Positions 3,359 to 16,375 are shown, counted from the stretch's first letter. The stretch: DNA of 44,902 nt from an uncultured Candidatus Saccharibacteria bacterium (GCA_964453655.1 CAYVSP010000003.1:1-44902); one strand, 5' to 3'. A program made the numbers and translations. Notes: generated from the sequence alone by a model not told the origin.

Positions 3359-5479
3359 TTACAGTCGCTCTAGAGGAGCAAAAGCAATATTCAGCTTTTT
3401 AGTACCACTCCCCTTAAAATAAATAGTTGCGTTGTCGCCGCTTATCTCGACAACCCGGCCGGTTCCAAAAAGCTTATGGCGCACCTGATCGCCCTCATTT
3501 AGTTCCGGTAGATAGACGGGCTCCTGATTGACTTCATCAAAGTTTGGTGGAGTCGATTCAAAAGCTGTCCGTTGGCTGGCAGGCTCAATCTCACTCAAGA
3601 ATCTGGACGGTGGATTGTGCTGAGAGGTTCCATAAAGTAAGCGCTGGCTAGCATGAATGAGATACAGCTCCTCTTTAGCCCTAGTCATGCCGACATAACA
3701 TAGCCGCCGCTCCTCTTCCATTTCATTTTGATCATACAAGGCCCGCGAGTGTGGAAAGATAGTCTCTTCCATACCGGTTATAAACACCACTGGAAACTCC
3801 AGGCCCTTAGCAGCATGTAAAGTCATTAGCGTTACAGCGTCATTACCAAATTTGGCGGCGTCAATGTCGCTAATTAGTGCCACTTCCTCTAAGAAACCGG
3901 CTAGCCCTGCCTCTTCGAATGAGCGAGCCACACTTAAAAGCTCGCGTACGTTTTCCTGCCGAGCTTCGCCTTGCGGTGTACCATCTGTCAGATAGTCTAG
4001 GTAGTTTAAGCGACGTATTAGGCTGTCCAGCAGGCCGGATAGACTTGTTTCTGCAATAAGCTCATGGAGTTTACTAATCAATTCGCCCAGCTCGTGCAAC
4101 GCTTGACGTGCTTTGGGAGTTAGCTCTATACAACTATCAACCTGCAATAAGGCACCCAGCAAACTTTTGCCACCCCGCCAATCATGGAAAACTTGAAGCG
4201 ACTTTGGTCCGATACCACGCGTTGGCACATTCACAACGCGCTCAAAGCTAACATGGTCTTGTGGTTGATAAATAAGCCTTAAATAGGCTAACAAGTCTTT
4301 AATTTCTTTGCGTTCATAAAAGCGTACCCCGCCAACTATGCGATAAGGAATAGCGTAACGGATAAATGTCTCTTCGATGGAGCGGCTCTGAGCATTAGTA
4401 CGATATAGCACGGCGAAATCCTCAAATTTCCTCAGGCGCAGGTCCGTGGCCGTTCGAACGCGTTGCATTACCGCTTCAGCCTCGGCCCGCTCACTGCCGA
4501 CTTGCATGATCTGGACTGGCATACCATGCTGTGCTTCGGTCCATAACTTCTTATCAGAACGCTGCTGGTTCTTAGTGATAACGGCATGTGCCGCTTCCAA
4601 AATGTGCTTTGTACTTCGGTAATTTTGCTCAAGTTTAATAATAGTCGTTTTGGGATAGTCTTTTTCAAAATTAAGAATATTTCTAAAGTCAGCACCTCGC
4701 CAGGAGTAAATACTTTGCCAATCGTCACCAACGACGGCAATGTTTTGATCTTTATTAGTTAGTAGCTTTACCAAGCGGTACTGCGCCGCGTTGGTGTCTT
4801 GATACTCATCGATTAGGACATAGCGAAATTGACGTTGCCATTTCTCGAAAATTTCTTTCTGGCTTTCTAATAAGTACACGGTGCGTCCGATCAGATCATC
4901 AAAATCAAGAGCGCTGGCGTCTTTGAGTACTTGTTGATAACGAGGAAAGGCTGCTGAAGCCGCGCGCTCTGCTGGACTATTCTGTAGCCCGGCATACTGG
5001 GCTGGCGTAATCAACTCATTTTTAGCACTGCTAATCAGGCTTGCCAATAATCTAGGCGGGAAACTTTTTTCGTCAATGTGCAGCTCTTTTGCTACTTGCT
5101 TTAGCGCTGCTTGCCGATCGGCCTCATCAAAGATAACGAAATTACGTGGAATGCCACTATGCTCACCGTCCTGTCTAAGTATTCGTACACAAATGCTGTG
5201 AAATGTACCAGCGAACGGCAGGAATGAACGGTTATCGGGATTCTCGCCCATTAGCTTAGCAATCCGTTCACGCATTTCGCGAGCCGCCTTATTGGTAAAT
5301 GTTACTGCCAAGATATTAAACGGGGTCGCTTTCTTGCTGGTAATTAAGTAAGCAATCCGGTGCGTCAGTGTCTTAGTCTTACCACTGCCGGCACCAGCTA
5401 GAATAAGCAACGGACCCTCAGTAGTTTCAACTGCCCGCTGCTGCTCTTTATTTAATCCTGTCAGTAAGCTCTCAAGCAC
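3359..5479 (-). CDS. pcrA: ATP-dependent DNA helicase PcrA/UvrD (SF1)
   Basis: 706 aa. It has Walker A AGAGSGKTKT, the DEYQDT motif, the VGDDWQSIYSWRGA and TLHAAKGLEFP motifs, and a C-terminal Tudor-like tail. Confidence 0.92.
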   Translation of the reverse strand: MLESLLTGLNKEQQRAVETTEGPLLILAGAGSGKTKTLTHRIAYLITSKKATPFNILAVTFTNKAAREMRERIAKLMGENPDNRSFLPFAGTFHSICVRILRQDGEHSGIPRNFVIFDEADRQAALKQVAKELHIDEKSFPPRLLASLISSAKNELITPAQYAGLQNSPAERAASAAFPRYQQVLKDASALDFDDLIGRTVYLLESQKEIFEKWQRQFRYVLIDEYQDTNAAQYRLVKLLTNKDQNIAVVGDDWQSIYSWRGADFRNILNFEKDYPKTTIIKLEQNYRSTKHILEAAHAVITKNQQRSDKKLWTEAQHGMPVQIMQVGSERAEAEAVMQRVRTATDLRLRKFEDFAVLYRTNAQSRSIEETFIRYAIPYRIVGGVRFYERKEIKDLLAYLRLIYQPQDHVSFERVVNVPTRGIGPKSLQVFHDWRGGKSLLGALLQVDSCIELTPKARQALHELGELISKLHELIAETSLSGLLDSLIRRLNYLDYLTDGTPQGEARQENVRELLSVARSFEEAGLAGFLEEVALISDIDAAKFGNDAVTLMTLHAAKGLEFPVVFITGMEETIFPHSRALYDQNEMEEERRLCYVGMTRAKEELYLIHASQRLLYGTSQHNPPSRFLSEIEPASQRTAFESTPPNFDEVNQEPVYLPELNEGDQVRHKLFGTGRVVEISGDNATIYFKGSGTKKLNIAFAPLERL

Positions 5480-9807: not shown

Positions 9808-10014
9808 TATCTATCAGTGTACTTGCTTGTGCTTATCCGAGGCAAGCAAGTAGTCATAATAAAAAGCACCTGGGGTGCTTCTATTGGTGACCCGATTAGA
9901 GACGAAGTGGAACCTTATCTGTGAGGAAATACTTCGCTGGCAGCAATTACTCAAGTCAGGTCAAGGGTCATTAGCACTACCTGTTGGTAGTTGAACCCAA
10001 GTCTAAATTCTACC

Positions 10015-10578
10015 CTAAAGATACTTGCGAGTCAGGTTTTCTATGTTTTCAACAGCGGTTATTATGTTTTCATTGAAACTATCATCAGTTGGTTTGGCCC
10101 AAAGTACTTTTCTTGCATCCATATCAAAGTCCTCAGCAGTAAAACCTGACCCAGGGCGCTTAACGTCAATATATTGCTCATAAGTTACTTGTAGCTCACG
10201 GATTAGTTTCATTAACTTATCAACCTCTTGCTTAATGTCTTTGCTTAGATGTACCTCGGCTTTTAAGGACAATAACGACAGCTGGACAACAGGCTCGGTA
10301 ACCTCTTTCCATCTTCGCTCCATTGCTTCAACATAACCAAAGAACTCATTCATTTCCTTACTGGCCTTATCGTTCTTTACTGGGGTGTATTGAACGAAGG
10401 ATGAACGAACTACCCCAACGCCTTCACGCACTCTATAAACTTCTAACAATAACTCACTGGCAACTTTGTATTTATCGGTTCCTTTGATTTGGCGCTTCCA
10501 AGTGTCTAGACCAATCCATGCGATTATTACCCCTGCTATAGGGGTTAATTTGATGATAAAGTCTATTGCGTCGTTCAT
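10015..10578 (-). CDS. Hypothetical protein with N-terminal TM helix; third gene of the M-R operon
   Basis: 187-aa ORF that starts 21 nt after the stop of the restriction endonuclease gene, on the same strand. I recognise no family. Confidence 0.5.
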   Translation of the reverse strand: MNDAIDFIIKLTPIAGVIIAWIGLDTWKRQIKGTDKYKVASELLLEVYRVREGVGVVRSSFVQYTPVKNDKASKEMNEFFGYVEAMERRWKEVTEPVVQLSLLSLKAEVHLSKDIKQEVDKLMKLIRELQVTYEQYIDVKRPGSGFTAEDFDMDARKVLWAKPTDDSFNENIITAVENIENLTRKYL

Positions 10579-10599
10579 GGCTACATCAGGCTCACAGAC

Positions 10600-11385
10600 T
10601 TAAAACAATACTTCTTTTTCTCTGTAGAGTTGCGGCCAACTATTTTGCCTAATTCTGAACTTGGTGCCGTGATTATGTCCAGTACGTGCGTCAAAATCAA
10701 CTAGTACCGTGCTGTTTTCTAAGCATTGTAAAAATCCTTCAAAATCAAACCCTGTTAATTTCATTGCCCGTTCATATTTATAAAACTCTTTGCCGTTCTC
10801 TCTTTTTACTGCTGCCTGCACAAAAAAGCAGTTTGTCAGCTTGGCACCAACTTTGTGTTCCAAATCTTCAAAGCCCCAGTATGGTTGCGGATTTAACTCA
10901 CCTAAGCCGACTTTTGCCTCAACACCAGCCAGCCAGTCCTTATGTCGGTCCGATACGGCGTTTTTATCAAATGAAATCAGTACTTTCTTTTCCTTGCGGT
11001 CAATCTGTACCATGAAGCCTCTGTCGCTTCTACTGAGGCCGTTGATTGTCTGTCTAAAACTCATTTCAGTCTCGGAGTACTTCTTACCAGCTTCTTTGTG
11101 GGCCCAACCGTATTTCGGCAATAATATAGCAGGCACAAACTTAAGGGCAGTCGGTGACGGCTCCGTGTGAAATAGTGTAGTTAATGAGGATGTATTTAGC
11201 CGCTGTGTCTTCAACTCCCACTCAGCTGCATTAGGTATGGGTAAGTTGTTTTCTTCAATACCTAGCAAGTCTTCAAGAGTGTTACCAATACCACCATGGT
11301 TGCCATGACGCCCATTTTCTACCCAACCCATGGCAGCAATCTCGTGCAGTCTCTTTATTAACTCGTCTTTGGTATAGATTTTCAT
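10600..11385 (-). CDS. Type II restriction endonuclease, MvaI/BcnI-like
   Basis: 261 aa. The N-terminal block GWVENGRHGNHGGIGNTLEDLLGIEENNLPIPNAAEWELKTQR matches my memory of the MvaI/BcnI family signature. There is a 4-nt ATGA overlap with the upstream methyltransferase. Confidence 0.65.
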   Translation of the reverse strand: MKIYTKDELIKRLHEIAAMGWVENGRHGNHGGIGNTLEDLLGIEENNLPIPNAAEWELKTQRLNTSSLTTLFHTEPSPTALKFVPAILLPKYGWAHKEAGKKYSETEMSFRQTINGLSRSDRGFMVQIDRKEKKVLISFDKNAVSDRHKDWLAGVEAKVGLGELNPQPYWGFEDLEHKVGAKLTNCFFVQAAVKRENGKEFYKYERAMKLTGFDFEGFLQCLENSTVLVDFDARTGHNHGTKFRIRQNSWPQLYREKEVLF

Positions 11386-12140
11386 GCGATTAGACTTTCT
11401 TGTTTTTGGTGGTTTTTTATACGCTCATCTGCTAATTCGCAGTACTTCTTAGATAGCTCTATACCGATGTACTCTCTGTCTAGGTTCAGTGCAGCTATAG
11501 CAGTGGTACCTGAACCCATGAATGGGTCTAGGATGATTTTACCGTTCGTAGAGCCAACAATTCTTTCAATTAGTTTGACTGGGAAAGGTGCGGGGTGTGT
11601 GTTTTTTAGTTCCTGCCCGAACTCCCAAATGTCGCCAAGACTACTTGCTTTAGGGGCTAGCTTAAACTTAGGCTTAGCAATTAAATAAATGACCTCGTAT
11701 GTCGGCAGGAAGTAGCCAGGGTTGAAATTAATCCCGCCTTTTCTACGCCAAATTATTATTTGTCTAACTGGAAAGCCCTCAACAATATCATGTCTGTCCT
11801 GTAACAAGCCACCCTGTACACGCCACTTGTGATTGTAGAAAACGGCCCCGTCTTCTTTGGTAACACGCAACATTTCCTTTAAGCATTCTCGTTGCCACGC
11901 TACGTAATCATCATGCGGCATATTATCGTGGTGTTCTTCGTAGCCGTTCATTAGCGCAGCCCTTGACCATTTACCACCACGACCGTCTTTCATGCCGTTA
12001 CCAGTTGAGTTCTTGAGGTTATAAGGTGGTGACGTGATGACTAGGTCTACACTGGCATCAGGCATTTGCTTCATGACAGCTACGGCATCGCCACAGACGT
12101 TTTTATTAATAAAATCAGCTGGAAACTTTAACTTTTTCAT
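11382..12140 (-). CDS. DNA methyltransferase, beta-class (N4-cytosine or N6-adenine; SPPY motif favours m4C)
   Basis: 252 aa. Motif IV (DLVITSPPYNL) lies near the N terminus and motif I (LDPFMGSGTT) near the C terminus, which is the beta-permuted order. Confidence 0.85.
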   Translation of the reverse strand: MKKLKFPADFINKNVCGDAVAVMKQMPDASVDLVITSPPYNLKNSTGNGMKDGRGGKWSRAALMNGYEEHHDNMPHDDYVAWQRECLKEMLRVTKEDGAVFYNHKWRVQGGLLQDRHDIVEGFPVRQIIIWRRKGGINFNPGYFLPTYEVIYLIAKPKFKLAPKASSLGDIWEFGQELKNTHPAPFPVKLIERIVGSTNGKIILDPFMGSGTTAIAALNLDREYIGIELSKKYCELADERIKNHQKQESLIA

Positions 12141-12356
12141 TCTTTACCATTGTAACCTTATTAACCCTTTAATCAGTATCATAAGCATGCCCTGTAATGT
12201 CATCAGGGCTGAATACCCAAGCTGCTGCTTTTGATTATAGACTTTTTTACGGTGGTTTTACAGGGAAATAATAGCCAATACGCCCCCATATATAACCTTT
12301 ATCTGAGTCTCTTGCTCAACTGATTAATATATGTGGGTACAAATATGCTTGCATGC

Positions 12357-12420
12357 ACCTAGCAAAACCTAGCAAAACCTAACATTTGGCCGACCTGAGA
12401 AAACCTAAGAAAACCTAAGA
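12357..12420. repeat. Two pairs of tandem 10-bp repeats sharing AAAACCTA (candidate operator or iterons)
   Basis: ACCTAGCAAA occurs twice (12357-12376) followed by ACCTAACA. GAAAACCTAA occurs twice (12399-12418). The spacing is one helical turn. The site lies between the divergent methyltransferase and HTH/recombinase genes. Confidence 0.6.
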
Positions 12421-12500
12421 TTGTGCTACTATGAAAGTAACTCGGGTAAGGGACGAGTAACACAAACTATTCAAGAGCCAACACCAGTCTTGAGGTTTTA

Positions 12501-12677
12501 ATGTTACTAAACCCGCCCACAACTCTTCCAATATCAATAAAGGAGGCTCGCAAGCTATTAGGAGTCTCTGCTGCTGGTTTGTCAGATGACCAAATAGCAG
12601 AACTTGTCATATGCCTTACAGAGGTAGCTGATAATTTCTTGCAAGATTTAGGTTCCACTAACTATAATGGTGTCTAG
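12501..12677 (+). CDS. Small (58 aa) HTH-like protein upstream of the recombinase (possible regulator or directionality factor)
   Basis: My own translation gives MLLNPPTTLPISIKEARKLLGVSAAGLSDDQIAELVICLTEVADNFLQDLGSTNYNGV. The ISIKEARKLLGVS segment looks like an HTH. It falls below the 60-aa cutoff of the ORF track. Its stop lies 1 nt before the ATG at 12679. Confidence 0.45.
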   Translation: MLLNPPTTLPISIKEARKLLGVSAAGLSDDQIAELVICLTEVADNFLQDLGSTNYNGV

Positions 12678-14313
12678 TATGCTACCCGAACGTCTACAAA
12701 GGCAAAAGCAACAAACAATGGCCTTACGAAGCAACAAGGCTGTAGCGTACATACGTGTGTCAACAAAAGACCAGGTGGACAACGAAAGCATTGACACACA
12801 ACGTCAACGTATCACTCAGTACGCCGACCAGAACGGCCTTGAAATTGTTAAGTGGTTCATAGAAGAAGGTCGTTCGGGAAAAACAGTCGGAAAGAGACCA
12901 GCAGTCAAGGACATGCTTTTCTACCTTGCTCGTAATAAGGGCAAGATGGGGTACGCCATATTTTACAAAATGCAACGCTCGTCAAGAGACGTACAAAGCT
13001 GGGCAAGTGACCTGAAGTCTGTATTAAACGGCCTAGGCGTTGCTGTTCGTTCTGCGACTGAACATATTGACGAAAGTCCAACGGGTCGTTTTATGGAAGT
13101 TATGTTGGTCGCAAACGGTCAGTTAGACAATGACATCAAGTCTGGTGTTACAAGCGACAACATGGCTTCAGTCGCAAAACAGGGCTGGTGGCAAGGCGGT
13201 CCAATACCTGGCTATGACGTCGTTAGGGTCAAAATTGACTCTCAAAAAACACACTCAATGCTACGCAGCAACAAGCACGCTCCTGCACTAAAGACGCTTT
13301 ACGAGCGCTACTCAACTGGACAGTACAGTAAGGCTGACATAAAGCGGATGGCTAATGAACTCGGCGTGCGTAATGCCCATGGCGGTTACCTGAATGATAC
13401 AAGCGTTGACCGTATGCTTTCGCAACCTGCTTATATGGGCTACATATGCAATAAGCATTCAGGATTTGAACTATACGAGGGCAAACACATAGCAGACTCA
13501 ATAGTTACCCCAGAATTGTTTAACAAGACACAACGTGTACTAGCACTTCAGTCTAAAAGCACTAACAAACTGGGTAAGAAAAAGCTAATCATCAACAGTA
13601 TGTACCCCCTGAAGCGTTTTATACGTTGTGACAACTGTGGTGGGGCATACAGGGCTTCCGCTCCACTTTCTGGCGGCGGTAAAAGTCACTCTGCAAGATA
13701 CCATTGTCCTCGCCCTCAGTGTAAAGGGATTGTGCGTTCACGTAAGGCTGATGATGTACACAATGGGTTCGTAGAGCTACTAGATGACATAACTCCGTCA
13801 GAGGGTGTACTGAGGCTCTATAAGGAAATATTAAATCGTCAGGCCCTAACCCAACTTGGCAACCTGAATAAGCGTATTGAGCAACAGCGTAAATCGCTTA
13901 GTAACCTGGATGCCGAACGTCTTACTGCCCTACGTAGTGCAAACAATGGCCAACTGACCACTGAAGAAAAGGATGAACTGATTAGTAGCATTGCAGCCAA
14001 TAAAGCTGAGGTGATTGAAAATATAGCCAAACTTGAAGAGCAACAGCAGGTCAAGCAGTCAGCCGTGGAGTATGCGTTGAACTTCATGGGTGATGTCAAA
14101 AAATTATGGGTTGATGCAGACCCCGACCTAAAACAAAGGTTCCAAAAAATGATATTCCCAGATGGGGTGTCACTTAACACAAACAATATGACTTTTGGAA
14201 CCGAAGCTATAAGCCCACTTTACAGATACGTGCCAAATAAAAAAGACCTTTCCGCAAAGGAAAAGTCTCTTTTGGTGACCTCAAGGAGAATCGAACTCCT
14301 ATTGCCAGGATGA
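12667..14313 (+). CDS. Large serine recombinase (resolvase/invertase catalytic domain, recombinase domain, zinc ribbon, coiled coil)
   Basis: 548 aa. The catalytic-Ser motif is AVAYIRVSTKDQ and the Cys cluster is CDNCGG..YHCPRPQC. Alternative starts lie at 12679 and 12718. The last 14 codons (14272-14313) are antisense to tRNA-Glu. Confidence 0.88.
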   Translation: MVSSMLPERLQRQKQQTMALRSNKAVAYIRVSTKDQVDNESIDTQRQRITQYADQNGLEIVKWFIEEGRSGKTVGKRPAVKDMLFYLARNKGKMGYAIFYKMQRSSRDVQSWASDLKSVLNGLGVAVRSATEHIDESPTGRFMEVMLVANGQLDNDIKSGVTSDNMASVAKQGWWQGGPIPGYDVVRVKIDSQKTHSMLRSNKHAPALKTLYERYSTGQYSKADIKRMANELGVRNAHGGYLNDTSVDRMLSQPAYMGYICNKHSGFELYEGKHIADSIVTPELFNKTQRVLALQSKSTNKLGKKKLIINSMYPLKRFIRCDNCGGAYRASAPLSGGGKSHSARYHCPRPQCKGIVRSRKADDVHNGFVELLDDITPSEGVLRLYKEILNRQALTQLGNLNKRIEQQRKSLSNLDAERLTALRSANNGQLTTEEKDELISSIAANKAEVIENIAKLEEQQQVKQSAVEYALNFMGDVKKLWVDADPDLKQRFQKMIFPDGVSLNTNNMTFGTEAISPLYRYVPNKKDLSAKEKSLLVTSRRIELLLPG

Positions 14314-14347
14314 AAACCTGGTGTCCTAACCGTTAGACGATGAGGCC
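14273..14347 (-). tRNA. tRNA-Glu (anticodon UUC)
   Basis: The rc reads GGCCTCA TC GTCT AACGGTTA GGAC A CCAGG TTTTCAT CCTGG CAAT AGGAG TTCGATT CTCCT TGAGGTC A CCA. This is a cloverleaf with one G-U pair in the acceptor stem and an encoded CCA. Confidence 0.85.
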
Positions 14348-14487: not shown

Positions 14488-15468
14488 TTACCGTCTGGCA
14501 AATTTGCGGAGGAAGTAGAATTTGTGCCATAAAGCAGCGCCTATAGCAGTTGCCGTAAACATACCAATGGCATCACCTGCACCGGTATTGGTAAGTTCCG
14601 TTGTAGTGCTGCTCGGCGTAGCTGTTGGGGTGGAAGTTGACACAGTAGTGACTGTCGGCGGTGTGATGGTTTTGGTTTTGAAGTTCACCACACGCTGACA
14701 CTGCCGGCCATCTTTCCAGACCGTGCTACCATCAGCCTGTTTTACTTGTACCATTCCGGTGATAGTAAATGTGTCTTTTTCAGTACCATATTTGTGGTTT
14801 TTAGTCTGCGCATTGTCGGATGTACCGTCGCCCCACACGATCTTATAGCCAATGATGTTAGTGCCTGTACCGTTTACTTTAGCACTTACCGTACGATTTT
14901 CTTTGTTCACGAAAGCTACGTCTAGACTACTGCATGCGCCGGTTGAGGGCGGTGGCGGCTTGGTTCCACAATCCAGTCCTTGACCACCTAAGTAAGCGTT
15001 CAATAGACGGCCTGGTTCATAAGGCAAGTGTCCGCCGGGACCAGTTGGGTTTGTTCCTAGGGCTAGGTCAACTTGGTAAAAACATTTTGGCACATTAACA
15101 GTCAAGCTATATGTAGCCATCATACCGTTAGGGCCTGATGCCACATTTTGCAGCGTGGCAGATGCAAATAGTTTCTGATCTTCAAGCGGATAAGGGTTGC
15201 CCCCCTGATGAGGAACAATAAAAGAAGCCAGTACGAAATCCTTACGACAGTTACTGTCTCCCTGCACTCCCACCGTTGTGCTGATGGTGTCACCCTTGCT
15301 GTTGCTTCCTTTCGTAAAGCCTTTGCCTAGATCAGCCTGGGGAATATATTTACAGGTTGGTGTATCGCCAGGGGCGGCGTGCACTACTGCACGTACACCT
15401 GTCGCCAATACAACACCTAGTGCAAGAGCTAAAATTATGTTGCGTACTCTGTTTAAACTTTTAGTCAT
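14488..15468 (-). CDS. Secreted surface protein: conserved 4-Cys domain, PKD-like domain and LTNTG sorting signal
   Basis: The start was moved to MTKSLNRV, preceded by AAGGAGGGAGCAAAC. It has a signal peptide and a domain shared with the ORFs at 15740-16375 and 31744-32397 (GDTPTCK..GDSNC.KDFV..NVPKCFYQVDLALG..). A WGDG-containing PKD-like segment follows. The C terminus is LTNTG, then a hydrophobic helix, then RKFARR. Confidence 0.75.
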   Translation of the reverse strand: MTKSLNRVRNIILALALGVVLATGVRAVVHAAPGDTPTCKYIPQADLGKGFTKGSNSKGDTISTTVGVQGDSNCRKDFVLASFIVPHQGGNPYPLEDQKLFASATLQNVASGPNGMMATYSLTVNVPKCFYQVDLALGTNPTGPGGHLPYEPGRLLNAYLGGQGLDCGTKPPPPSTGACSSLDVAFVNKENRTVSAKVNGTGTNIIGYKIVWGDGTSDNAQTKNHKYGTEKDTFTITGMVQVKQADGSTVWKDGRQCQRVVNFKTKTITPPTVTTVSTSTPTATPSSTTTELTNTGAGDAIGMFTATAIGAALWHKFYFLRKFARR

Positions 15469-15739: not shown

Positions 15740-16375
15740 TTAGCGCATGCGGCGCACAAGAACTGTACGATAGCTAAGCGCAGCGGCCACGGTAACAATT
15801 GCGAATAGTCCAGCTATATTACCAGCCCCAGTATTTATGAGAGTGGTAGGGGTTGTTGTGGGTTGGGTAGTTACTGGGGTAGCTGGAGGGGTTGGCGTTG
15901 TACATACCCCGTTACCACCCAACTTAGCGTTCAACATACGACCGGGTTCTATAGGTAAGTGGCCATTGGTACCAGTTGGTTTCATACCTAATGCAAGATC
16001 AACTTGATAGAAACACTTTGGTACATTAACAGTCATTTTGTAAGTACCGGGTTTAGCGCCTGGTAGTTGGACAAAGTCAAACAACTTCTGATTTTCAAGT
16101 GGGTAAGGGTTACCAGCTGCATTTGGGATTTCAAAAGAAGCAAATACGAAATCCTTATGGCAATTGCTGTCGCCTTCTACAATAACGTTTACGCTTACAG
16201 TATCGCCTTTTTCATTAGTGCCGGTTGTAAAACCTTTGTGTTGACCTTCTTCATAGATGAACTTGCAGTTTGGCGTATCGCCATTTGCAGCCGATACATG
16301 TGCTGAAGCACTCACGCCTATAGCTAAAACCATACCTAAAGAGGCGATCCCTAAAATTATGTTTCGCATTTTCAT
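15740..16375 (-). CDS. Secreted surface protein paralog with LINTG sorting signal
   Basis: 211 aa with a signal peptide, the same 4-Cys domain and a T/P-rich linker. The C terminus is LINTG, then a hydrophobic helix, then RRMR. Confidence 0.8.
   Translation of the reverse strand: MKMRNIILGIASLGMVLAIGVSASAHVSAANGDTPNCKFIYEEGQHKGFTTGTNEKGDTVSVNVIVEGDSNCHKDFVFASFEIPNAAGNPYPLENQKLFDFVQLPGAKPGTYKMTVNVPKCFYQVDLALGMKPTGTNGHLPIEPGRMLNAKLGGNGVCTTPTPPATPVTTQPTTTPTTLINTGAGNIAGLFAIVTVAAALSYRTVLVRRMR

Follow-up and report, generated by a model that had tools for sequence, protein, structure and literature searches.

Five genes separate pyk from the gene for tRNA-Glu(UUC) in the genome of an uncultured Candidatus Saccharibacteria bacterium, and the question raised by this locus is whether they arrived there as a single mobile element and, if so, how. 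The stretch of DNA analysed here, referred to as the window, comprises 44,902 nucleotides (GCA_964453655.1, CAYVSP010000003.1:1-44902). A preliminary description had listed the five genes as those for a 187-aa protein, a restriction endonuclease, a methyltransferase, a 58-aa ORF and a 548-aa recombinase, and this gene content was recovered as stated. It is very probable that positions 9884-14280 represent a 4,388-bp integrative element inserted by its own large serine recombinase (LSR), through recombination between an attP site in the LSR gene and an attB site at tRNA-Glu(UUC).

That the genes constitute an insertion, as had been proposed, is borne out by relatives in which tRNA-Glu lies directly upstream of pyk (at a distance of 60-80 bp in L001, L004, L008, L019 and L024), the adjacency expected of an empty site. 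At 48 pyk loci examined, not one of the five island genes is present, and the closest relative (L001) has no island but keeps the flanking synteny on both sides. Neither a same-species empty site nor a circular junction was retrieved, a scan of JGI metagenomes with attB/attP patterns gave no match, and no other record of the exact LSR protein was found. The shift in base composition that had been suggested as a check is absent (43.4% GC in the island, 43.7% in the rest of the window); this test is uninformative, since these elements are themselves native to the phylum of the host. The tRNA-Glu/pyk junction is also a general hotspot, at which unrelated inserts of 0.2-6 kb are present.

The LSR gene, in the form found in the integrated element, encodes 548 aa (12667..14313, + strand). 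Judging from profile matches and a structural model, its product is a large serine recombinase with the canonical domains and fold. The catalytic domain matches Pfam Resolvase (6.7e-23, residues 25-173), with Y28, R30 and S32 of the motif YIRVS invariant across 45 LSR homologues, and PDB profiles match the catalytic domains of TP901-1 integrase and TnpX as well as the A118 integrase RD-ZD-CC structure (4kis). Downstream are matches to Pfam Recombinase (4.4e-8) and to Zn_ribbon_recom (1.8e-3, under its cutoff), where C321, C324, C347 and C352 are invariant or nearly so; in the AF2 model of the homologue P0062, residues 356-450 form long paired helices with pLDDT of ~90 over most of the stretch. 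The match to NCBIfam CcrB reaches 84.6 bits, against a cutoff of 900 bits. Overlapping the LSR start is the 58-aa ORF (12501..12677, + strand), which occurs beside the LSR in 10 of the 10 elements aligned and contains the motif IISVKEARKLLG..LSDDQI.ELI. It had been described as HTH-like; it is the sole conserved partner of the recombinase, but searches of Pfam, PADLOC, PHROGs, NCBIfam and PDB detected no HTH family or any other match. The 58-aa ORF and the LSR together make up the conserved module of the elements, and the small protein is a candidate regulator or directionality cofactor.

The junctions had been placed at two copies of the 9-mer TTGGTGACC, at 9884-9892 and 14272-14280, and both copies, which form the attL (9884..9892) and attR (14272..14280) cores with no assigned strand, were found where expected, together with the reported agreement of the surrounding 16-mers at 13 of 16 positions. 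Taken alone, this repeat is no better than chance: elsewhere in the window, 9-mers match the 33 nt surrounding the tRNA 3' end six times, and a 10-mer does so once. The boundary is validated not by repeat length, but by the in-frame continuation after the distal copy and by comparison with relatives. Exactly at the junction, the distal copy passes, without a change of frame, into the C-terminal tail that is conserved in the recombinase family, and in every integrated locus the conserved Leu-Val codons TTG GTN end 4 nt past the tRNA 3' A. Were the repeat coincidental, the five genes could have come in some other way, for instance through homologous recombination at the hotspot; such an origin would fit the lack of statistical significance of the 9-mer and the unrelated inserts, two of which at the same site (L007 and L031) have longer tRNA-fragment repeats of 17-20 nt. 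Against it stand the in-frame tail, recurring at 27 or more loci, the register with the tRNA CCA end that is identical in all integrated relatives, and the like architecture at other tRNAs, which together effectively refute a coincidental repeat and leave it a negligible probability.

The attP and attB sites of this island have only TTGGTGACC in common, and among the family loci the core common to both att sites comprises 7-11 bp. In reconstructed attP sites the dyad axis falls 1.5-2.5 nt past TTGG (complementarity 0.37-0.46, against a background of ~0.2). The 2-bp crossover is predicted to be TG or GA, at 9888-9890 in attL and at 14276-14278 in attR, the exact dinucleotide being a matter of inference.

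The LSR ORF runs into the tRNA gene: its last 11 codons, past ..KSLLVT, are tRNA-Glu(UUC) antisense, and its stop codon is located in the region of the anticodon loop. At the opposite end of the island, in frame with the core, lies the detached 3' end of the LSR gene (LVT-RLETKWNLICEEILRWQQLLKSGQGSLALPVGS-stop; 9884..9994, + strand), which would rejoin the LSR ORF on excision. This conserved tail of ~35 aa (NWNLICxEIxRWxxLL) follows the far-end core copy in frame both here and in 27 or more integrated relatives, and it is continuous with the rest of the protein in L054, L055, L091, L092 and L124, which are circular or free forms; unrecombined LSR ORFs are found in each of these and in L082. 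L054 is a contig of 4,668 nt with an exact terminal overlap of 127 nt, hence a circle of 4,541 bp, which carries a 59-aa ORF and a full-length LSR and has no tRNA. Since the far-end core and tail are in frame and a circular relative encodes the whole protein, the LSR gene must contain attP, and integration therefore exchanges the tail for tRNA-antisense codons. The integrated LSR isoform is accordingly without the conserved tail; among ~80 homologues of 40-75% identity most end in tRNA-antisense peptides, as integrated isoforms do; the free forms have the conserved tail as their terminus. The preliminary description did not note that attP falls within the recombinase ORF, which acquires a new tail upon integration. 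The tail swap may alter the behaviour of the recombinase between the free and the integrated state, and the exchangeable tail is a candidate control element for excision.

The tail might instead be conserved as DNA, being the P' arm of attP with an incidental open frame rather than part of a functional protein. Of 23 reconstructed attP sites, 21 have TGGAAC 20 nt from TTGG, with its third codon positions conserved too, and this fixed distance from the core means that part of the conservation could belong to the attP arm. Consistent with that, elements with LSR bodies of 65-72% identity have distal segments that are 77-91% identical as DNA, and AF2 gives the tail low confidence, with a disordered linker and a low-confidence helix. 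The conservation, however, extends ~100 nt past the core, well over the ~25 bp of an attP half-site in characterised LSRs. The frame is open for 25-38 codons, with similar end positions, in almost all of the at least 27 loci; pairwise differences are fewest at codon position 2, intermediate at position 1 and most numerous at position 3; and the genes of free forms are called as single ORFs that include the tail. A role as DNA alone thus seems unlikely. Searches of PDB and of protein families with the tail gave no match.

The tRNA-Glu(UUC) gene itself is intact (14273..14347, - strand; ARAGORN, Rfam 61.9 bits), although its last few 3' nucleotides and all sequence downstream are now island-derived; 8 nt of its 3' end, GGTCACCA, recur at the other end of the island (9885-9892). 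The proposal that the native terminator had been displaced and replaced by one from the island was upheld, and both hairpins are real, each folding stably and followed by a T-run. The displaced one, AAGCACC-CCA-GGTGCTT followed by TTTTTATT on the tRNA strand (9857..9880, - strand; -16.2 kcal/mol, z=-5.3), lies beyond the island, with the left junction on one side and the pyk promoter region on the other, and a comparable hairpin and T-run directly follow tRNA-Glu in relatives. The island-supplied hairpin (14234..14272, - strand; -15.9 kcal/mol, z=-4.05) is antisense to the LSR codons ..NKKDLSAKEKSLL. A simple terminator scan detected neither of the two. The antisense terminator is present in 19 of the 19 LSR family loci checked, and in their alignment 92.8% of cells are paired and 6 of 10 pairs show double, compensatory changes, values reached in 0 of 500 shuffles. 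The antisense strand of the last LSR codons thus forms a covarying terminator that stands in place of the displaced one.

In the mechanism that we propose, attP within the 3' end of the LSR's own gene would recombine with attB at the discriminator/CCA end of tRNA-Glu(UUC), probably by crossover at TG or GA inside TTGGTGACC. Integration would keep the tRNA intact and push its native terminator 4.4 kb away, a terminator encoded opposite the last LSR codons serving as a substitute, and it would detach the last 33 codons of the LSR, which encode a conserved amphipathic tail, with 11 tRNA-antisense codons put in their place.

The element belongs to a family with over 100 LSR homologues (27-75% identity), of which every named one comes from Saccharibacteria or other Patescibacteria. 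They adjoin, in a single register, the 3' CCA end of tRNA genes: tRNA-Glu(ttc), tRNA-Glu(ctc) and tRNA-Met in the closer family, and Ala, Arg and Leu tRNAs in more distant members. The cargo varies, the other islands carrying OLD-like, NYN, Hypoth_Ymh or aaRS-like genes or genes without an assigned family. Tandem accretion at a single tRNA was seen in L094 and L069. The preliminary description had called the island unusually compact, which it is not for this family, since members are mostly 3.7-8 kb. A phage satellite or the end of a degraded prophage, rather than an autonomous integrative element, is improbable. The recombinase class is typical of phages, with the LSR matching the integrase family phrog_95 at 5.5e-66; L059 carries a terminase-small-subunit-like ORF; and the element itself carries no transfer genes, with no relaxase, oriT or conjugation domain among the five ORFs of the window's island and 30 cargo ORFs from related ones. 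Yet capsid, packaging and replication genes are absent from the window island and from 10 related islands, a search of 2.9 million IMG/VR contigs gave no relative of the family, and complete circular and integrated units measure only 3.7-8 kb.

The cargo of the window's integrative element is a compact restriction-modification (R-M) operon and an accompanying ORF. The endonuclease gene (10600..11385, - strand) encodes a type II enzyme of the MvaI/BcnI family, matching PF15515 over the full profile length (7.7e-67), PADLOC REase_II (8.9e-84) and, in PDB, R.MvaI (1.3e-19) and R.BcnI (2.7e-8). It has the E-x-K motif (EWELK) and an Asn aligned to the first catalytic Asp of MvaI/BcnI (PIPNAAEWELK), the catalytic residues of MvaI being D50, E55 and K57; this Asn is present in all 120 closest homologues, and hence is a subfamily trait and not a lesion of this copy. 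The methyltransferase (11382..12140, - strand) matches N6_N4_Mtase (2.9e-43) and PADLOC MTase_II (5.3e-122), with SPPY ahead of FMGSGTT. The two genes overlap by 4 nt (ATGA), are translationally coupled, and their products each match one half of the fused PADLOC model PDLC03305. For CCWGG and CCSGG, the recognition sites of the MvaI/BcnI type, the host DNA of the window shows no avoidance (observed/expected 1.14 and 1.03, respectively). The third cargo gene (10015..10578, - strand; 187 aa, with a hydrophobic N-terminal segment) had no match in Pfam, PADLOC, PHROGs or NCBIfam and is absent from related islands. Between the R-M and recombinase operons lies a divergent control region (12141..12500, no strand) with two 10-bp tandem arrays (12357-12381 and 12393-12420) that are not common to relatives. 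The R-M system may both defend the host and stabilise the element through post-segregational killing.

An element inserted long ago by this same mechanism could by now be fixed and immobile, retained for nothing but its R-M system. Neither an empty nor a circular form of the exact element was found, its composition is identical to that of the host, and decayed relatives exist: L076 and L065 have a frameshifted LSR, L076 also a stop codon in the tail, and L103 and L148 are remnants of 1.7-1.9 kb. In the window, however, the detached tail and both the LSR and the 58-aa ORFs are undamaged and near consensus, and an untranslated remnant of 111 nt should decay if never rejoined; moreover, the closest relative, L001, is without the island. 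The Logan contig L053 begins exactly at 9892, in the core, as expected if a de Bruijn graph branched between a filled and an empty allele; this break is only suggestive, since assemblies also break inside the tRNA, whose k-mers are common to several organisms. Permanent fixation is thus rather unlikely, if a reading of some weight, and we infer that this copy of the element may still be mobile.

No description of this element family, with an insertion that cuts the LSR gene and replaces a conserved protein tail, was found. LSR elements such as phiC31, Bxb1, A118, TP901-1, Tn4451 (TnpX), SCCmec (Ccr) and Vibrio PLE (Int) share with it the domain order (catalytic Resolvase, Recombinase, and a zinc ribbon with inserted coiled coil), short att sites with few bp in common and an apparent, imperfect dyad symmetry, and a single recombinase gene at one element end. 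The present family differs in its tRNA 3' end target, its size of 4-8 kb, the lack of phage or conjugation genes and the low identity to characterised LSRs. Islander/TIGER tyrosine-integrase islands likewise occupy tRNA 3' ends, supply the displaced 3' part so that the tRNA stays functional, carry variable, often defence-related cargo and undergo tandem accretion (as here in L094 and L069). The sole recombinase here, however, belongs to the serine family and not to the tyrosine integrases, and the displaced tRNA fragment is 8 nt rather than tens of nt (17-20 nt in L007 and L031). SSV1-type archaeal integrases also target a tRNA and have attP inside the integrase gene, which is partitioned on integration. 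There, the tyrosine integrase is split into two non-functional parts, whereas here the exchange affects no more than a tail of ~33 aa and leaves every catalytic and DNA-binding domain whole.

The island shares a compact methyltransferase-endonuclease cargo on a small integrative element with mobile type II R-M units and with R-M systems that act as addiction modules of integrative elements (reviewed for IMEs in PMC5704250). As in such units, the cassette moves between different elements: L164 has the same R-M cassette (endonuclease 88% identical) in a 4.5-kb island at tRNA-Glu(ctc), whose LSR is only 41% identical to that of the window. The carrier here, by comparison, is a tRNA-targeting LSR mini-element of Saccharibacteria, in which relaxase and oriT are not seen. 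Prochlorococcus tycheposons are, according to the parts of the report considered here (bioRxiv 10.1101/2020.12.28.424599), similarly small cargo-carrying integrative elements at tRNA genes of streamlined genomes; they mostly have tyrosine recombinases, often replication genes, and an LSR in 27 of 937 cases, and no split LSR ORF was found described for them in those parts. A further parallel is the integration-dependent immunity of the mycobacteriophages BPs, Brujita and Charlie (Broussard et al. 2013, summarised in PMC3694055). In these phages, attP lies inside an ORF whose C-terminus is exchanged to give 'viral' and 'prophage' isoforms, the split gene being that of the repressor, the integrase a tyrosine enzyme, and the removed segment a demonstrated degradation tag. 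In the present element, attP is likewise within a coding sequence and the C-terminus is changed by integration, but the gene that is split is that of the serine recombinase itself.

The window originates from Saccharibacteria (TM7), and its pyruvate kinase shows no more than 77% identity to its counterparts in MAGs of uncultured Candidatus Saccharibacteria. As claimed in the preliminary description, the 9-bp sequence TTGGTGACC is present twice, at 9884-9892 and 14272-14280, with 13/16 identity between the enclosing 16-mers; because tRNA-Glu(UUC) spans 14273-14347 on the minus strand, the right copy is the reverse complement of the last 8 nt of the tRNA (GGTCACCA) plus one more base. Between the two copies lie an ORF of 187 aa, an endonuclease of the MvaI/BcnI family (E=7.7e-67), a methyltransferase of the N6_N4 family with an SPPY motif (E=2.9e-43; 4-nt overlap with the endonuclease start), an ORF of 58 aa and a large serine recombinase (LSR) of 548 aa with Resolvase, Recombinase and zinc-ribbon domains. 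The LSR gene runs into the tRNA, its reading frame passing the repeat as TTG GTG ACC and continuing through 11 tRNA-antisense codons to a stop at 14313, in the anticodon-loop region. The genes and their order thus stand as first described, whereas the HTH label given to the 58-aa ORF is not supported, since searches of Pfam, PADLOC, PHROGs, NCBIfam and PDB profiles returned neither a family nor a structural match; the 187-aa ORF also had no match in these searches, and the tRNA was the sole match in Rfam. Elsewhere in the 45 kb, six 9-mers and one 10-mer match the 33-nt stretch around the tRNA end; the 9-bp repeat alone is no more than expected by chance, and the case for the island is built on comparison. 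No shift from the flanks in composition or codon style is seen within the window (43.4% GC in the island vs 43.7% outside), a test that is uninformative because the element family is native to the same phylum. The overall reading, an LSR island with a restriction-modification (R-M) module at the tRNA-Glu end, is supported by relatives that lack these genes, by the register common to the recombinase family and by an in-frame tail. Within its family the island is unexceptional; the interest lies in the family as a whole.

The predicted empty arrangement, with tRNA-Glu adjoining pyk, is found in five of 48 loci encoding a pyk relative (L001, L004, L008, L019 and L024), where tRNA-Glu(UUC) lies 60-80 bp upstream of pyk on the same strand. 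The closest relative, L001, retains both flanks, with a 61%-identical counterpart of the gene on the other side of the tRNA and with pgk after pyk; the order is far-side gene, tRNA-Glu, pyk, pgk with nothing intervening. Homologues of the four cargo and partner genes (the 187-aa ORF, the endonuclease, the methyltransferase and the 58-aa ORF) occur in none of the 48 pyk loci, and a recombinase of 24% identity occurs in one. Given this absence, the five genes are an insertion, 4,388 bp in length, and not a case of lineage-wide synteny, the alternative that the preliminary description had set against an island. Just past tRNA-Glu, on the minus strand, the window encodes two paralogous secreted-looking proteins (14488-15468 and 15740-16375) that resemble one another in their N-terminal halves; each has a linker rich in Thr and Pro and, at the C-terminus, an NTGAG motif ahead of a hydrophobic segment. 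Pfam gives no match for either, and two copies are also present in L001.

The pyk/tRNA-Glu junction is a general hotspot, and unrelated inserts of 0.2-6 kb are found at it in many other relatives. Scars adjoining pyk in L017 (7307-7405) and L014 (2331-2399) are remnants of the conserved C-terminal segment, or tail, of the LSR family, and therefore indicate repeated use of the site; both the family recombinase and the tRNA are absent from the available sequence of these loci. A different scar type with longer repeats is seen in the tRNA-Glu/pyk spacer of L007 (7767-8000) and L031 (7743-8000), where the inserts measure 170-190 bp and 17-20 nt of the tRNA-Glu 3' end are repeated at their boundary, each copy being followed by its own terminator hairpin.

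Protein searches identified about 80 homologues of the LSR at 40-75% identity and some more distant ones. In sequence and fold the protein belongs to the large serine recombinase family, and it is distant from the characterised members (84.6 bits against NCBIfam CcrB, with a cutoff of 900). Most homologues are 544-548 aa long and share a conserved ..KS(L/V)(L/V)V followed by a C-terminal peptide of the IPRGIEPLLPG, TPAGVEPAIFRMRT or AGAGLEPATSWL type; these peptides are antisense translations of tRNA T-arms. At every integrated reference-genome locus fetched, the Leu-Val codons TTG GTN end exactly 4 nt after the 3' A of a minus-strand tRNA, and the targets are tRNA-Glu(UUC), tRNA-Glu(CUC) and tRNA-Met. 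Among a further 80 metagenome loci, members of 27-38% identity adjoin genes for tRNA-Glu, Ala, Arg and Leu, again in this orientation. Wherever a source organism is named, it belongs to Saccharibacteria or to another group of Patescibacteria. A phage origin of the element was considered and set aside, because a scan of IMG/VR with the family profile found no relatives. Two or three tail remnants in series precede a single recombinase in L094 (174-1100) and L069 (1053-1700), a pattern that suggests tandem accretion or successive element replacement at one tRNA; in L059, an additional 25-nt fragment of tRNA-Met is present at 4758-4782.

A minority of the LSR homologues are longer and end in a tail not derived from tRNA. 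Rejoining the window junctions (14280 to 9893) extends the LSR frame as RLETKWNLICEEILRWQQLLKSGQGSLALPVGS up to a stop codon (9893-9994), giving a protein of 570 aa; the added segment resembles these tails. By a systematic search, with a pattern that gave essentially one spurious match, the same arrangement was found in at least 27 other integrated elements, in which a short core copy 1.7-10 kb (mostly 3.7-8 kb) upstream is followed by an in-frame LVxxxxxNWNLICxEIxRWxxLL, the frame remaining open for 25-38 codons. Differences between tails are most frequent at codon position 3 and least frequent at position 2, as expected for translated sequence. Part of the conservation is probably that of an attP arm, since the spacing between TGGAAC and the core is constant in 21 of the 23 attP sites reconstructed. 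Profile searches with the tail in Pfam, PADLOC, PHROGs, NCBIfam and PDB yielded no family or structure, and an AF2 model of a free-form homologue, with a confident LSR body and a low-confidence tail, is uninformative on tail docking.

The circular form is represented by L054 (= L062; JACDEK010000067.1), a 4,668-nt contig whose ends share an exact overlap of 127 nt and which therefore indicates a circle of 4,541 bp. It has been binned with a Saccharibacteria MAG, at low coverage, and carries HTH genes, a 59-aa ORF, an uninterrupted full-length LSR with its tail and a G5-domain protein, and no tRNA. Unrecombined LSR ORFs are also present in L055, L082, L091, L092 and L124. A second free-form tail type of about 40 aa (..WNSL....L..KL..LG..), departing from the NWNLICxEIxRW type after the common W-N, is observed in L082 (1080-2819), L110, L111 (8001-9650) and the homologues P0020, P0042, P0043 and P0074; the LSR of L082 is the closest free-form relative of that in the window, at 71% identity. 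The dyad axis of the reconstructed attP lies 1.5-2.5 nt after TTGG (CTTGG-TTGC-CCAAG in the Met clade, TTGG-TGAC-CC in the window), which makes a 2-bp crossover at TG or GA (14276-14278 and 9888-9890) likely. The crossover predicted from this symmetry would coincide with the tRNA discriminator and the last base of the acceptor stem.

The preliminary description had proposed that the native terminator is displaced and that the element supplies a replacement. This proposal is borne out, and family-wide. Direct folding shows that both hairpins, the displaced distal one (9857-9880, tRNA strand; -16.2 kcal/mol, z=-5.3) and that on the island side (14234-14272, minus strand; -15.9 kcal/mol, z=-4.05), fold well and are each followed by a T-run on the tRNA strand, a simple promoter/terminator scan having missed both. 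A hairpin of -12 to -16.5 kcal/mol with TTTTTT behind it is formed, in 19 of 19 loci of the family and also in free forms, by the 33 nt that come directly after the tRNA CCA on the tRNA strand; these 33 nt are antisense to the LSR codons ..NKKDLSxxEKSxL. The stem sequence varies between clades while pairing is maintained (92.8% of cells paired, with both sides changed in 6 of 10 pairs); these values were reached by none of 500 shuffles, and every slid register scored lower. The LSR peptide opposite the terminator is a disordered linker in the AF2 model, which fits a stretch constrained mainly at the nucleic-acid level. On the plus strand of 14234-14272, an A-run precedes the hairpin and UCUUUUGG follows it, so that the hairpin could act as a bidirectional terminator, stopping transcription of the recombinase gene immediately ahead of the crossover and leaving transcripts that have no stop codon.

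Only the small ORF and the LSR are common to the elements compared. The small ORF is kept in all ten elements aligned, where it overlaps the LSR start, and is a candidate for a regulatory role or for that of a directionality cofactor. In the divergent region between the methyltransferase and the 58-aa ORF, two 10-bp tandem arrays, at 12357-12381 (ACCTAGCAAA x2.5) and 12393-12420 (ACCTAAGAAA x2.8), present six AAACCTA-type repeats in helical phase and may constitute an operator for R-M or recombinase control; they are not conserved in relatives and have for that reason been left out of the model. In L061 (7900-7984), L071 (9800-9877) and L055 (2420-2479), a hairpin with a T-run lies directly upstream of the small ORF and downstream of a sigma-70-like promoter, and may act as an attenuator of recombinase expression. 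The 5' leader of the 58-aa ORF in the window folds no better than shuffles (z=-0.87).

The cargo of related islands is diverse, comprising a class II aminoacyl-tRNA-synthetase-like gene with DUF5681, an OLD/GajA-like ATPase-TOPRIM protein, NYN, Hypoth_Ymh, TPR and CAP/G5 proteins and many genes without assignment. The methyltransferase-endonuclease cassette of the window recurs at the same position in a 4.5-kb island (L164:690-5300; ERR4450749) that targets tRNA-Glu(CUC); its endonuclease is 88% identical to that of the window and its LSR merely 41%, and cargo cassettes are therefore exchanged between elements. The cassette is also found in L162, beside a KwaB gene and without an LSR. The endonuclease subfamily is very large and highly conserved, with 7,009 matches spanning several phyla and named sources including Saccharibacteria, Peribacteraceae, Prevotellaceae and Methanosarcinales. 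In the window protein (10600-11385), Asn occupies the position of the first catalytic Asp of R.MvaI and R.BcnI (PIPNAAEWELK, residues ~48-63), as it does in all of the best 120 of these 7,009 homologues, and is therefore a subfamily trait rather than damage to this copy. Avoidance of CCWGG/CCSGG was not detected within the window.

In the window, LSR and small ORF are intact and near consensus, as is the 111-nt tail remnant, which is untranslated; this counts in favour of activity. Loss of function is illustrated by decayed relatives, namely L065 and L076 with frameshifts (the L076 tail also containing a stop codon) and the truncated remnants L103 and L148. The Logan contig L053 (SRR9179562) starts exactly at GGTCACCAA, window position 9892, the point at which coexisting filled and empty alleles would make a de Bruijn graph branch. 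Exact-protein look-ups for an empty site or circle of the same species yielded nothing beyond three contigs with pyk and two with flanks, which come from a single sample series (SRR9179559, SRR9179560 and SRR9179562) and are broken at the core, within the tRNA or 6 nt into the island. As one of these, L051, starts 6 nt inside the island and others of the same samples break inside the tRNA, the break of L053 is only suggestive. A degenerate attB/attP/attL/attR pattern scan of JGI metagenomes gave no matches.

Alongside the observed boundaries, split ORF, antisense terminator, register at the tRNA CCA ends, variable cargo and circular relative, the insertion itself was in all likelihood made by LSR-catalysed attP x attB recombination within TTGGTGACC. 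The R-M module might, besides host defence, stabilise a non-replicating element through post-segregational killing, and exchange of the tail might alter the stability, activity or directionality of the recombinase between the free and integrated states. A more speculative idea, which we regard as rather doubtful, is that tail exchange constitutes a built-in state sensor, replacing or working with a directionality factor. Full-length LSR would then be produced from the free circle, its conserved C-terminal helix licensing attP x attB integration or setting protein stability, and the integrated copy would yield a re-tailed isoform that differs from it in activity, stability or directionality. 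If the state-sensor idea were true, a minimal ~2-kb cassette, formed by the 58-aa ORF and an LSR that contains attP and the antisense terminator, would be a self-contained integration switch that is safe for the tRNA and occurs widely among Saccharibacteria and other Patescibacteria. The position of attP inside the recombinase ORF, giving two isoforms tied to the integration state, is a new regulatory possibility and makes directionality control of a minimal, RDF-poor element directly testable, and the last LSR codons, doubling as a replacement terminator for the host tRNA, are a compact case of both-strand constraint. Genetic manipulation of Saccharibacteria is difficult, and the 2-kb recombinase/attP module, with a defined attB in conserved tRNA genes, is a natural integration-vector candidate for them. 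The elements also illustrate how defence-type genes, R-M genes among them, spread through the reduced genomes found in the phylum.

Islands driven by an LSR are known, and so is R-M cargo on small integrative elements (PMC5704250); the present elements differ in target class, in the attP inside the recombinase ORF and in the dual-use terminator. It has been stated that serine integrases do not target tRNA genes (PMC4383910); here a whole LSR clade does so, and its register at the CCA end is the same in at least five tRNA species. The tycheposons include a few LSR-bearing elements, and a split ORF is not described in the part of that work considered here. The literature searched contains no description of this LSR family or of an LSR with internal attP, though the large recent att-site catalogues may hold an earlier mention. 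Integration-state isoform logic is known for a phage repressor with a tyrosine integrase; in the same literature no serine integrase example was found. That system, integration-dependent immunity in mycobacteriophages, is the closest precedent for tail exchange: the repressor ORF contains attP and loses a degradation tag on integration (PMC3694055), so that a protein C-terminus is likewise changed by integration. It employs a tyrosine integrase and splits the repressor gene, whereas in the LSR family it is the gene of the recombinase itself that is split.
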